From NCBI GenBank assembly GCA_964016885.1, contig CAXHJY010001531.1:1-64000 (forward strand): 64,000 bases of DNA. The letters are read 5' to 3'. Below the pieces are notes generated by a model. That model was not told where the DNA came from, did no database searches, and saw only the letters and a program-made list of their open reading frames with translations. The position numbers and the translations under genes were made by a program. Shown piece after piece: positions 4,153 through 63,420 of the stretch (position 1 is the first letter of the stretch; each line of letters begins with the position of its first letter). Source of the DNA: Eledone cirrhosa (Eukaryota).

Positions 4153-4300
4153 AATAAACGAAGCTAAATTTTAATCATTTGACTTTTATTTAACTTTATT
4201 TTACACTACTCCGGAGTAACCAAACCAACCTGCGCACTTCGTCGAGTGCTCCAGCCTGCATACTGAGGTGTTGGTATACAACCAACATAAACTCAAAATC

Positions 4301-5840
4301 TATTATATATATATATATATATTATATATATTATATATATATATATTATATATATTATATATATATATATTATATATACTATATTATATATATATATATT
4401 ATATATATTATATATATATATTATATATATATATATAATATATATATATATACTATATTATATATATATATATATATATATCATTATATATACCGTATTA
4501 TATATATATATATATTATATATATTATATATATATATATATATAATATATATATATATATATAATATATATATATTATATATATTATATAATATATATAT
4601 ATAATATATATATATATATATATAATATATATATATATATATAATATATATATATTATATATATTATATATATATATAATATATATATATTATATATATT
4701 ATATATATATATAATATATATATATTATATATATTATATATATATATATATTATATATATATATATATATATATAATATATATATATTATATATATTATA
4801 TATATATATATATATTATATATATAATATATATAATATATATATATTTAATATATATATATATATATTTAATATATATATATTTAATATATATATATTTA
4901 ATATATATATATATATATATTTAATATATATATATATATATTTAATATATATATATATATATTAAATATATATATATATATATATTAAATATATATATAT
5001 ATTATATATAATATATATATATATTTAATATATATATATATATATATTTAATATATATATATATATATTTAATATATATATATATATATATATATTAATA
5101 TATATATATATATATTAATATATATATATATATTTAATATATATATATATATATTTAATATATATATATTTAATATATATATATATATATTTAATATATA
5201 TATATATTTAATATATATATATATATATTTAATATATATATATATTATATATATATATTTAATATATATATATATATATATATATTTAATATATATATAT
5301 ATATATATATATTTAATATATATATATATATATATATATTTAATATATATATATATATATATATATTTAATATATATATTTAATATATATATATTTAATA
5401 TATATATATATATATTTAATATATATATATATATATTTAATATATATATATATATTTAATATATATATTTAATATATATATTTAATATATATATTTAATA
5501 TATATATTTAATATATATATATTTAATATATATATATTTAATATATATATTTAATATATATATATATATATTTAATATATATATATATATTTAATATATA
5601 TATATATATTTAATATATATATATTTAATATATATATATTTAATATATATATATTTAATATATATATTTTAATATATATATATATTTAATATATATATAT
5701 TAATATATATATATTTAATATATATATATATATTTAATATATTTATATTTAACATATATATATTTAATATATATATATATATTTAATATATATATATATA
5801 TATTTAATATATATATATATATATTTAATATATATATATA
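4301..5840. repeat. (TA)n array, with a TTTAA variant unit in the distal part
   Basis: Direct reading. Confidence 0.97.
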
Positions 5841-6980
5841 TCATCATCATCATCATCATCGTTTTACGTCCGTTCTTCCACGCTCACATGGGTTAGACGG
5901 GTTGTCCTGTTGTGGGCAGTGTCTGATCGGCTGACCATGCCTTGCTCATACAGGAACTGATTTGGCTTGATTTCTACAGCTGGATGCCCATTCCGAACAC
6001 CAACCTCATTTACAGTGAGTGCTGGGTGCTTTTTCATGGCGCCTACACATCCACCTTGTGGTGGGGGATGTGGGGCATATTGTCTATATGCTTCATCTTG
6101 TACTCATGGGAGGTCGGGTACTCTGTATTACTGCGCGACGCCAGAAGTCACGGTCGTGTGTCATTGTCTTTGAGAGTGTAATTGGGTAAGGTCGACTTTT
6201 ATCACCTCATCCCAGGTCATCTTGGGTCTCCCCACTCCGCGGTTTCCACATCAACTTCTAGTGCTCTGCAGCTTTTTATGCAGCTGTCATCCTTCATACG
6301 CATCACATATCCATACCAGTGCAACCGTCTCTCCTGCACACAGCATTTGATTCCTCTTATGCTCAGTCTCTCTCTCAATTTATTTATGCTTTGTCGTTCA
6401 CGTATATTACTGTTACACATCCATCGGAGCATGCAGGCTTCATTTCTCTCTAATCTACGTAAGTCTTCCACCTTCAGCGCCCAGGTCTCACTACCATGCA
6501 ACATCGCTGTTCGGATACACGCATCATACAGTCTGCCTTTCATTCTGAGGGAGAAGCCTTTTGCAGCTAGCAGTGGTAGTAGTTCCCTAAACTTCTTCCA
6601 TCCCATTCTTACCCTAGTTATTGTACTTTCTGAACACCCACCTCCGCTGCTAAATCGGGTACCTAGGTAGCAGAAGCTGTCTACTGTTTCTACAGGGCCC
6701 TCCCAGAGATTGGTGGTACTTGTTTCCTGTGGCTGTTTGCTGCTTGCTGTCTCAGCACAGCTGCTGCATGTGAATCCTACATTCTTAATTAAGCTTCTTG
6801 AGATCCCGCTACATCTCTTGTGTACCCATTGTTTGCATTTGGGGCAGAGAATGGAGTTCCTACCTACGCCTTTCCTACATACTGAGCAAGGCCATTTCCC
6901 TGAGGGGATCTGCGTTCTGTTTTCTCGTCTACTCACAAGGACCTTAGTCTTTGTCATGTTGACTTTGAGACCCTTTCTTA
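5841..6980 (-). mobile_element. 5'-truncated RTE-clade LINE (family 1) with (GAT)n tail
   Basis: ORF 6217-7005 is homologous to the C-terminal half of ORF 50782-52899 (PHD-like finger, YLG, HGSETW, RLHWYG); (CAT)n at 5841-5860. Confidence 0.92.
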
Positions 6981-7111
6981 CTGCACCAATCTTTTGGTAT
7001 GGCACCTTCTAGTATTACCTAGTTATATATATAAATATACATTATGAAGAGAGAAGAAACATTTAGATATAATTAGTAATAAAATGTATCATACCTAAAC
7101 TGCTCCTAGAT

Positions 7112-7201
7112 TCCTCGACTACGTAGTTTCGTGGCATAAACAAAAACAATACATCATAAAGATATAGAGTCTTTGCGAGGTCTGCCGACTTATCAAGAGG
7201 A
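7112..7201 (-). ncRNA. Variant hammerhead ribozyme (inverted copy, E2)
   Basis: Reverse complement of 7486-7575. Confidence 0.7.
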
Positions 7202-7485
7202 TACCTCATTTTACTAGCTTCAAGAACGCGTCTACACGACGTGGTCGAGTAATATTTGATGAGTGGTGACTGCTGGAAAGCTGCCATTACTCATACTTCT
7301 CGCCTCCTTCACCACCTCTTCTACGGCTTCGATATAAATACCCCCTCCGCGGTATTTTCTTTGGGGTTATAAGAGGCTTAGCTCTGTTTCTCGACCGTTA
7401 TATCGCGTGACTATCTCCCCCTCCGCTTTTTGGGATTCTTTCTCACGTCGTGTAGACGCGTTCTTGAAGCTAGTAAAATGAGGTA

Positions 7486-7575
7486 TCCTCTTGATAAGTC
7501 GGCAGACCTTGCAAAGACTCTATATCTTTATGATGTATTATTTTTGTTTATGCCACGAAACTACGTAGTCGAGGA
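7486..7575 (+). ncRNA. Type I hammerhead with U3-A8 core and long helix II insert (E2)
   Basis: tcctc-TTGATAA-gtcggca...tgccac-GAAA-ctacgtag-TC-gagga. Confidence 0.75.
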
Positions 7576-7919
7576 ATCTAGGAGCAGTTTAGGTATGATA
7601 CATTTTATTACTAATTATATCTCAATGTTTCTTCTCTCTTCATAATGTATTTTTAACTCTGATACTGGTTCAGTCTGATTCAACCGGATTGGTCTGTCCC
7701 AGTCATTCATTGAGCAACATCGGTAAGGTTGGCACCATTAACTCACGGTTGGGTGTGGATGCATTCATGTATATGTGTGTGTCCGCATGTATCTGTGTTT
7801 CTAAATGTATTATATATAAATAAATATATATATATATATATATATATATATATATATACATATTTATATATATATATATATATATATTTAATATATATAT
7901 ATATATATATATATATATA

Positions 7920-61561: not shown

Positions 61562-62466
61562 TACGATCTATACGTGGATATTTTACGTCTCGATGTGGGA
61601 GCTAAGTATATGTTTTGTTTATACCTTTACTTATTTGTATAGGTAAGTATATATTATCTGTATGTTTTGTGAAGGCACGTATATCTTCTCGTACGTATAT
61701 TTGATTGTTATGGCGTATAATTTTTTTATATATTCTGGTACATATGGTTCGGCTATGTGTATACGGGAGTTTTGCGTCTGTGTGAGTATGCAGGTTCGTA
61801 CGTATGTAGGGCGTGTGTATATGTGTACTTCATGTTTTGGTTGACTTACGTCTCCGAACATTCGTGTATTTACATGTAGGTATGTGTGTGCGCTTGTTAT
61901 ATACGTATTTATTTATTTATATACGTTTATATAATTATTTATTTATTTGTATACACGCTTACACACACACACATATTTATATGTGCGTGGTTTTATTTAC
62001 CTATGGTATGTTTTTGCGTATGCTTGTGTATGTACGTTTCTGTTTGCGTGTATGTATTTATTTATTTCTATTACTTCTGTATTGTATTTATTTACTTTGT
62101 TCTTAACTCCGTAGCGGAGATTCATTCGGTCTCCTAGTTAGAATTAAGTCTACCACTTCTGCTATACCATTTAGTGGTTTTGTCTTTGCGTGCTATTGTT
62201 CTCCACGCTCCACATATGACGTATTATCTTCGTTTTTTTCGTTCATCGCCAGAGAACGTCTCTATGAACCACCTAAGAGAACATTAGTCTACGACCTCTT
62301 TTATACCATAAACGTGGTTCTGTCTTTGCGCGTAATTGTTTTTCACCGCTCCTATTAATGACGTATTATATTCGTTTTTTCCCGTTCTTAGCCAGCGAAC
62401 GTTTCCACGAACCGGGTGCAACGTTTTTTGAAATATCCAGTTCTGCGTTTACAGATTGACTTTGTT

Positions 62467-62517
62467 AGTTTCAGAAGATCCCGTTAAGGGTGAAAGCAGC
62501 GATTCTTTGCTTAAACT
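62467..62517 (+). ncRNA. Type I hammerhead with CAGAAGA core (E13)
   Basis: agttt-CAGAAGA-tccc/gggt-GAAA-gca..tgc-TT-aaact. Confidence 0.7.
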
Positions 62518-62679
62518 TTAATCTGTTATTTTAATAAATATATATATATATATATATATATATATTATATATATATAAAGTATGTATGTATGTAAAGAGA
62601 GATGTAAAATCGTGACAGCTGCGCCAAGAGGTTTCAGCTTGTGTCTCAGAACCGCAGACTCTATTTATATATATATCCT

Positions 62680-62835
62680 TATGTGGTTGATGACTGATAA
62701 AAAGGAGTACTCAATACGGAAGTAGAGTTTTAATATTCATTTTATTAAGGCTAAATAGGGCCATGAACCAGTGATAAACAGGTGAAACTGCAGAGTAACA
62801 AGATTCACTATTTATCCTTAATAAAAATGAATGTA
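62680..62835. mobile_element. Small diverged PLE-derived inverted repeat E14
   Basis: Arms ~62735-62762 / 62804-62832; tail stem-loop at 62709-62728 on the minus strand; GAAAC..GTA half-ribozyme. Confidence 0.55.
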
Positions 62836-63181
62836 TATAGAAACAACATTTTTTTAAGAGAGGCAGATGTTTCTGTGTGTGGTTGAGGAGTGCCAATGGA
62901 AGAATTGCTGTTAGGCTCTTGCCAACAGGGCCGGAGTTATTTTGCTAAGTGCTACATCTCACTACTTGCTTGAACAGGTCAAAGTGATGCTTCTTGTCTG
63001 CAGAACCAGAGTCGGAATGACCCAAAGAAAAACTTATTTTACTTCACGCCAAGCTGGCTGGTCTCTCCAGGCAACTGATGTCAACCGAGATTAAAAAAAG
63101 ACCAGCCAGATGTCATTCGAGGTGGTGGGGAGGCAGTATGTGCAAAGAGATTGTGCTATATATATATATATATATATATAT

Positions 63182-63254
63182 AGAGAGAGAGAGAGAGAGA
63201 GAGAGAGAGAGAGAGAGAGAGAGAGAGAGAGAGAGAGAGAGAGAGAGAGAGAGA
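63182..63254. repeat. (GA)n microsatellite
   Basis: Direct reading. Confidence 0.97.
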
Positions 63255-63420
63255 AGAAAAGAGTCAGGACCTCGGCAGCTGAGCTCCGGCCGTTTCGACA
63301 GCTAAATCCGAACTAAGCCACCAATACTGACTCTTTTTCTTGTTACCCACTCTACTACCCTAGTATTGAGTACTCTGGTGCATTATGGTCCACATAGAAT
63401 CTTACCACCCCTCTTTGTTA
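63255..63420. mobile_element. Small PLE-derived inverted repeat E15
   Basis: AGAAAAGAGTCAG / CTGACTCTTTTTCT arms; tail stem-loop at 63349-63371. Confidence 0.5.

Follow-up and report, generated by a model that had tools for sequence, protein, structure and literature searches.

A duplicated bulged hairpin at the ends of Hydra-clade Penelope-like elements in Eledone cirrhosa

For Penelope-like elements (PLEs) of the Hydra clade, the available part of the published description lists a C-terminal GIY-YIG endonuclease (EN), the motifs CxCX5C, RW(K/R) and DKT, lack of CCHH, a hammerhead in the terminal repeat and (TA)n targets (PMC8557442). The optional tail of PLEs has so far been explained in two ways, either by nuclease resolution or by two reverse transcriptase (RT) starts in one lizard element. 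For this purified Poseidon PLE, the accessible sections of the report describe a pair of internal RT starts, one on either side of the tail, and a requirement for downstream RNA, so that internal initiation itself is already published (PMC11167929). Retrozymes without long terminal repeats (non-LTR retrozymes) have in turn been proposed to be mobilized by PLEs, as stated in the parts of the retrozyme papers at hand (PMC7229834; bioRxiv 10.64898/2026.07.22.740005). Here we describe a short bulged hairpin at PLE ends in a 64,000-nt window, i.e., the first 64 kb of contig CAXHJY010001531.1 (assembly GCA_964016885.1) from the 3.0-Gb genome of Eledone cirrhosa, where (TA)n and nested retrotransposons are abundant.

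In Hydra elements the stretch from hammerhead to start codon contains the motif two times, and element copies end 2-8 nt upstream of one or the other. The RT-endonuclease likely binds the hairpin RNA and starts there, a reading to which we assign a probability of about 0.72. Literature searches, with subscription journals and Repbase notes outside their scope, returned no description of the motif, and no conserved tail signal is known in the literature searched.

A motif called by its position

The motif has the consensus GCUC-Y...R-U-H-GAGC, with a 2-nt bulge (U-H) ahead of GAGC. Twelve stretches of the window had been listed in a first-pass annotation, and both their coordinates and their letters were verified. 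The end of a repeat arm is visible inside the window upstream of the motif in eight of the twelve, and for the stretches at 63349, 62709, 8168 and 40682 the junctions were placed via relatives elsewhere in the genome. Families carrying the motif are numbered F1 to F11, and loci outside the window bear L numbers. The minimum-energy fold is the 2-nt-bulged form in 8/12 stretches; z-scores of the single-hairpin fold are mostly weak (-0.8 to -2.6).

Searched without regard to position, a permissive descriptor, made of RYTC, 5-64 nt whose closing base is paired, T-H and GARY with four pairs, shows no excess: it matches 53 times in the window, where 10 local shuffles gave 34-63, and 572 times in evenly spaced regions totalling 800 kb, where the shuffled counts were 631 and 647. 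Since the free pattern shows no enrichment, the motif can be called only together with its position. The first-pass annotation had named equal frequency in shuffled DNA as a point that would count against the motif; this holds for the free pattern, whereas the position at junctions is enriched. For a blind screen, we took inverted repeats that are asymmetric and have (TA)n at one end, irrespective of the motif, and filtering for span, TA-ended tail and RTE ends reduced 69 candidates to 47. The motif lies at -2..+12 nt in 22 of these 47 junctions, compared to 0.23 in shuffled tails, and the controls gave 0 on the antisense strand, 0 at +30..+44 and 6 at -45..-31. Counted by cluster, it is present in 8/21. 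The misses comprise several decayed or long-loop copies and others from motif-less families, two of them Neptune-type by protein. The motif is thus confirmed as real, exceeding chance by position.

A second motif after the tail end, absent from the first-pass annotation, is found wherever copies read on, in all five families concerned (F9, F5, F8, F2 and F3), and one such copy stands in the window at 45239-45259. Three of the five are non-coding: F2, F3 and F8 consist of tandem units of 593, ~561 and ~537 nt, respectively. Two distinct ends were seen across 30 F9 loci. The fixed spacing to 3' junctions looked for by the first-pass annotation is borne out in these families, with 174 of 184 ended copies stopping 0-9 nt before a motif (166 at 2-7), to within the few bases by which TA microhomology blurs each end. 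The other copies either end elsewhere (10), read through (51) or were left unplaced (9). Copies hardly ever end at other A/U-rich stretches of the tail, among them the TA-rich loop of F9 motif 1.

At some ends a short unit is recopied: in 5/10 cases for F5 (6-8 nt unit) and in 17/~21 for F8, the latter count resting on a 9-nt anchor that gave 34 hits, ~13 of which were unrelated and removed by eye. Between element and (TA)n (L031-L060, L061-L090, L091-L116, L320), the F5 unit of 6-8 nt is present up to four times, (CT)n reaches ~60 in F8 and (ATTT)n occurs in a metagenome locus. In view of these units, one may ask whether microsatellites are seeded or lengthened by PLE insertion itself. A separate Hydra family (L266:560-940) may have three ends along with three hairpins resembling the motif, of which the central one is imperfect.

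Beyond Eledone, a 40-protein alignment led to 78 metagenome loci of ~38-46% identity, which form 59 families at 80% nucleotide identity. Among the 60 loci having at least 80 nt upstream, 56 carry a motif at most 150 nt from the start of the open reading frame (ORF) and 38 carry at least two; the expected number was 2.4, and controls yielded 4 on the antisense strand and 19/685 in coding windows. By family, the motif precedes the ORF in 42/44 and is double in 29/44, with motif 2 ~20-55 nt ahead of the ATG. Downstream copies were followed in 44 end-mapping rows, 18 of which place the end 2-8 nt before a motif (one of the 18 being a substitution). Inspected by eye, the other 26 are indels or subfamily differences in continuing copies, TA runs or, as in L330 and L369, true ends at other places. 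Some metagenome junctions lack TA. In the portion of PMC8557442 available, a clean motif is seen by eye in 3/6 Hydra consensi (File S7) and another consensus stops before it; five 9-nt terms for the 3' half matched 7 places in the supplement (4 Hydra, 1 Naiad, 2 Chlamys), a text search in which line breaks may hide matches. No relative was found in the viral contigs searched.

The covariation across independent families anticipated by the first-pass annotation is present as inner-stem swaps. With no pairing imposed, inner pair 1 is C-G in 44 and U-A in 16 of 65 family-sites; inner pairs 2 and 3 covary and pair 4 does not. At site 1, the inner pair is U-A in 19 and C-G in 17 of 38 families, i.e., Watson-Crick in 36 against 18.6 after shuffling, and 9 changes map onto the RT tree (a quick method, with one very long branch), 5-6 of which are forced by well-supported branches. 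A search whose anchor left the three bases before GAGC free returned a purine in 68/68, U in 68/68 and never G. Outer-stem variants in families of the own genome are ACUC/GAGU and GUUC/GAAC, and sense-strand U-G wobbles are found in the outer stem. The ACU that follows the stem is nearly invariable in the metagenome set (62/65), but not in the own genome. The shortest forms span 15-16 nt, and the PDB gave no match by sequence.

Several further properties of the hairpin were recorded. Bulge variants comprise a single U in relatives of the element at 40682 and UG in one family (L313:4220-4368, L302:3229-3353, L301). On the 3' side of the F7 loop (window 24033-24038; L177-L206) lies a 5-nt hypervariable patch whose flanks vary by <10%: the 26 intact-motif copies among 30 examined have 23 distinct inner sequences, a pattern not seen in six other families. 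Possibly, this patch is a hotspot of RT errors arising where the hairpin is bound by protein. The motif resembles a hammerhead that lacks its core, and a role as trans-substrate of the upstream hammerhead was considered and rejected, as the ribozyme arms of F2 and F5 do not pair with the motif in register (by eye) and stem I sequences vary while the motif stays fixed.

Carrier families belong to the Hydra clade

By sequence marks compared by eye with reference proteins, the protein-coding carriers are classed as Hydra-clade PLEs. The insertion at 60040-62538 is a 5'-truncated copy of F9, a young and abundant family (102 scored matches, 95-100% identity). Its 5'-truncated RT-EN ORF (60239..61561, +) encodes RxRxR-I-W-NPP, a CxCx5C linker and, at the C terminus, GIY-YIG. 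The full frame counts 709 aa from the ATG (L002), a single ORF with RT followed by EN, in which the linker occupies residues 564-572, conserved in the 40-sequence alignment, and YIG stands at 598. The RWK-type motif reads RLRWR at 35, the variable residue being K in 57 and R in 19 of 76 homologues. DKT is present in four of five printed F9 copies, with NKT in L002. The EN lacks CCHH and has CDLC...CKH at 662 around the conserved E and N, a pattern shared by the F5 EN. The predicted protein model (predicted local distance difference test, pLDDT, 87.7) has TERT as best fold match (E 2.8e-8). The F9 unit in L002 is ~3.24 kb long, and published Hydra elements are generally under 3 kb. Insertion into (TA)n is seen across families.

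The first-pass annotation had described the encoded protein as Naiad-like. We reject this label because the EN is C-terminal, hammerheads are carried and the published Naiad consensi are practically without the 3' half of the motif. Naiad elements require an N-terminal GIY-YIG EN with a CxC link to the RT; they have no canonical hammerhead and measure 3.4-4.4 kb.

In 38 metagenome families, a canonical hammerhead core lies 35-66 nt upstream of motif 1. The cores in the own genome, read by eye, are partly variant, and Rfam returned 0 matches at gathering score in the window plus 5 loci. A hammerhead-like fold with variant core is read by eye in F9 at 62468..62516 (+), 22 nt upstream of the tail-less end 62538, and a type I hammerhead-like fold in F8 at 45512..45591 (+), upstream of the tail-less end 45653; the fold read by eye in F2 is likewise of type I. 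The first core strand is variant in young, active-looking families (62468-62516; 13200-13260, minus strand; 7500-7580), its second base being A or C in F9 and F5; F2 departs further and has a long stem II. Cleavage by the hammerhead may be dispensable or protein-assisted in these families.

The motif lies on the sense strand, downstream of the hammerhead-like fold, and in F5 and F9 the tail is borne by the short inverted arm. Motif 1 of F9 (59989..60034, -) sits on this arm (arms 60040-60249/62355-62538); motif 2, seen in tandem copies, stands 3 nt past the tail end, with the ATG ~25 nt further on. In F5, the 5'-truncated long arm contains a C-terminal GIY-YIG endonuclease fragment (14644..15038, -), the arms are 13115-13185/15039-15109, and motif 1 (15113..15146, +) is on the short arm. 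Motif 2 of F5 lies 5 nt past the tail end, directly ahead of the ORF in L058. The F1 motif (4208..4247, +) begins 4 nt past the tail-less end of the palindrome 3762-4203, with a tail to 4303. F1 is tied to a Hydra-type endonuclease by L092, where EN and 3' untranslated region (UTR) run into the F1 repeat, so that F5 and F1, like F9, lead from Hydra-type endonucleases.

Non-coding tandem units carry motif 1 in F2 (7656..7715, +; 593-nt unit with hammerhead-like fold; arms 7032-7243/7444-7655), F3 (8168..8197, +; ~560 nt) and F8 (45123..45146, +; ~535 nt; direct arms 45082-45119/45616-45653). Motif 2 follows the tail end in F2 (tandem copies) and F3. The first-pass annotation had set F3 aside as a weaker case with a 16-nt gap; the family junction is 4 nt away, hence a regular case. 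F8 has the compensatory outer pair GUUC/GAAC in motif 1, and its motif 2 (45239..45259, +), just past the end point of tailed copies, has the first base pair disrupted in most copies. The remaining carriers are F4 (11825..11843, +; arm 11700-11819), a small hairpin element at 11700-11890 with no tandem copy seen; the old family F6 (22439..22468, +; arm 22327-22433), whose motif is kept, with a different loop and 5 nt from the tail-less end, in the 70%-identical relative L085; F7 (24022..24044, +; arm 23692-24018), with constant stem and bulge and a loop hypervariable between copies; F10 (62709..62728, -), whose relative L128 has a UUCG loop; and F11 (63349..63371, +), an abundant old hairpin family with the motif ~5 nt from the tail-less end. 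The stretch 40682..40701, also considered weak in the first-pass annotation, belongs on the minus strand, as the decayed motif of the hairpin element 40707-40888, and two relatives of this element have a 1-nt U bulge form.

As the first-pass annotation had noted, the Neptune-like elements lack the motif, which was checked for two Neptune families through genome relatives and proteins. The control element at 16657..17728 (-) has two fixed ends, neither followed by the motif. Both ends of this family (L395-L419) are followed by ATCG, with a possible long tail-spanning hairpin, and a different anchor may exist in the Neptune clade. Two hairpin families with fixed tails (L281:2840-3150, L250, L251:4700-5060, L302) also lack the motif, and one of them has a canonical hammerhead core.

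A proposed RNA anchor for two internal starts and its rivals

We propose that a read-through transcript of a partial tandem would carry the ORF, 3' UTR, hammerhead, motif 1 and motif 2, and that the protein would clamp one of the two motifs. The endonuclease would nick A/T-rich DNA, mostly (TA)n, and the nick would pair with the U/A-rich stretch immediately 5' of the stem. A start at motif 1 would produce the tail-less end and a start at motif 2 the tailed end, copying motif 1, with a tail length equal to the inter-motif distance of ~55-170 nt. While clamped, the RT could slip and recopy the first few template bases. Because the chosen motif itself would never be copied, it could be restored only via tandem copies. 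The first-pass annotation had offered the hairpin either as an RT/EN binding site or as a template-boundary element. The former idea gains weight because the second motif stands at the tail end; the latter places the hairpin on the wrong side, as it lies 3' of the start and not 5' of the template. A clamped anchor fits the two ends, the tail length, the presence of both motifs in non-coding passengers and the recopied units at some junctions.

A number of observations weigh against this reading. Of the ended copies, 79 stop before motif 1 and 95 before motif 2, a ratio biased by queries that included tail or unit. A read-through copy was not obtained for F1, F4, F6, F7, F10 and F11. Recopying is rare or missing at F8 J1 (0/23), F2 J1 (1/16) and in F9 (4/24 and 3/19). 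Two of the six published Hydra consensi show, by eye and in the part of the file available, only degenerate motif forms (PMC8557442). The outer four pairs hardly vary in metagenomes, and a 24-sequence subset of 8-nt inner length has little covariation, its score being reached by 25/500 shuffles. G-U outnumbers A-C in the inner stem by only 6 to 3, which does not settle the folding strand. Finally, the purified EN of Penelope reportedly depends on the tail being present in DNA (cited in the accessible part of PMC11167929).

This last report, obtained with plasmid DNA, leads to the alternative that survives best, DNA-level resolution, which we nonetheless consider improbable. Here, the cDNA would pass the motif and fold into a hairpin, and the GIY-YIG endonuclease would trim 2-8 nt away. 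Craig et al. ascribed the tail to EN-mediated resolution in the section available (PMC8557442), and the hairpin can fold on either strand, the wobble strand bias being weak. However, the recopied end units fit RT initiation rather than trimming, the U-G wobbles of the outer stem are on the sense strand, and an invariant U one pair from an invariant A-U corresponds to a known RNA triple geometry, as far as the relevant part of PMC6189040 describes it. Moreover, genomic ends of the Poseidon element coincide with its RT starts (PMC11167929, accessible sections).

Quite improbable, in our estimate, is that the hairpin acts in RNA 3'-end formation, with a nuclease or termination cutting the transcript just 5' of it before ordinary end-primed target-primed reverse transcription. 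Such a signal predicts the same two ends and accounts for the exclusion of a motif from the copy ending before it. On the other hand, forms of 15-16 nt are too small for a known self-cleaving fold and have no Rfam match, the spacing ranges over 2-8 nt across families, a protein sitting on the cut-off piece would be unable to hold the template, and tailed copies demand that motif 1 be ignored in about half of the events. Control of expression by hairpins in the 5' leader of the next unit, acting on transcription or translation while ends lie nearby via A/U-rich-(TA)n pairing, is very improbable: the metagenome position of motif 2 ahead of the ATG and the resemblance of the bulge to TAR, a transcription element, speak for it, but both motifs are kept in non-coding families, other A/U-rich tail stretches are hardly ever ends and some junctions in other organisms have no TA.

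The window also holds elements of other types. An RTE-type long interspersed nuclear element (LINE) is present at 50533-52899, 6182-7008 and 44073-44857, with 3' ends in (ATC)n, and the ORF that bears its RT also contains a PHD finger (Pfam PHD, 528-571). A CR1/Jockey-like RT fragment (41577-43094, within 40908-43477) lies between 103-nt identical inverted arms with (TA)n-type repeats flanking, and is possibly carried by a PLE-type repeat. At 18374-19700 there is a transposase remnant with 116-nt inverted ends, which we take to be Mariner-type from its motifs.

Comparison with known elements and RNA structures

The inverted and tandem arrangements and the optional tail resemble published Hydra PLEs, as far as the available part of that work describes them, although the tail is given there as 30-40 bp and ascribed to EN resolution, as opposed to ~55-170 nt here (PMC8557442). 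The same part does not mention the hairpin for Hydra elements; the tails described here equal the distance between two motifs. With PAc, the Anolis Poseidon PLE, the Hydra elements share two internal starts bracketing the tail, the need for downstream RNA and A/T-rich nicking, in so far as the mechanism above holds. Unlike Hydra, PAc starts inside the ORF in an AC-rich stem-loop; it is one family of another clade, for which no conserved motif is defined in the sections at hand (PMC11167929). As tandem units of 530-600 non-coding nt, F2, F3 and F8 are similar to non-LTR retrozymes, for which the parts of the papers available name no cis signal for the PLE protein (PMC7229834; bioRxiv 10.64898/2026.07.22.740005), and they share the two motifs and the end geometry with autonomous Hydra families.

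For the bulge itself, the parallel is the arginine sandwich, in which, according to the part of the source at hand, a paired base precedes a bulged U and is followed by G-C and A-U pairs (PMC6189040). The positions are A22, U23, G26-C39, A27-U38 and G28-C37 in TAR, and a U40U41 bulge with A43-U66 in 7SK (PMC6189040). The invariant Hydra positions coincide with these, with a bulged pyrimidine after a Watson-Crick pair, a free spacer base and then G-C and A-U. Tentatively, and at somewhat below even odds, the bulge may form a U*A-U triple bound by the RxRxR arginines, its core being a permuted TAR/7SK arginine sandwich. The arginines are found at two positions in 106 and 107 of 108 homologues, before I-x-W-x-NPP, and belong, in the predicted model, to an extended loop that follows the thumb helices. 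Against this stands the motif-less Neptune protein (17069-17728), which has a basic stretch at a similar place; RxRxR could therefore be a nuclear signal or a DNA contact. We hold the arginine step low for this reason and also because bulges are small and convergence is possible. The Hydra topology differs in being permuted: G-A-G is paired to a strand upstream of it, and the other end is closed by the loop. No shared ancestry is implied.

Doubtful, but worth stating, is a wider version, in which Hydra PLEs would use this permuted TAR/7SK-type bulge as a portable anchor, RxRxR clamping a 15-20 nt hairpin 3' of the template while the RNA upstream is copied into (TA)n. Equally doubtful are its further parts, i.e., telomerase-like recopying and a duplicated anchor as the origin of the PLE tail and as the signal borrowed by retrozymes.

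As the duplicated motif predicts both ends to within a few bases, the question of the tail becomes testable with a handful of point mutants. The hairpin is also the first candidate RNA ligand for the PLE reverse transcriptase, the sister group of telomerase, and supplies a sequence rule for annotating Hydra ends and non-coding passengers. If portable, it would serve as a cis element of very small size through which the insertion of a chosen RNA could be directed.

Short conserved RNA structures for template choice are known from the stem-loops of stringent LINE and short interspersed nuclear element (SINE) 3' tails and from the R2 3' UTR; these are located upstream of the start and become part of the inserted copy. 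The motif described here is a clade-wide, duplicated cis element and a variant of such retrotransposon template-recognition structures. Unlike them, the Hydra hairpin, present twice, would be placed downstream of the start and left out of the copy.

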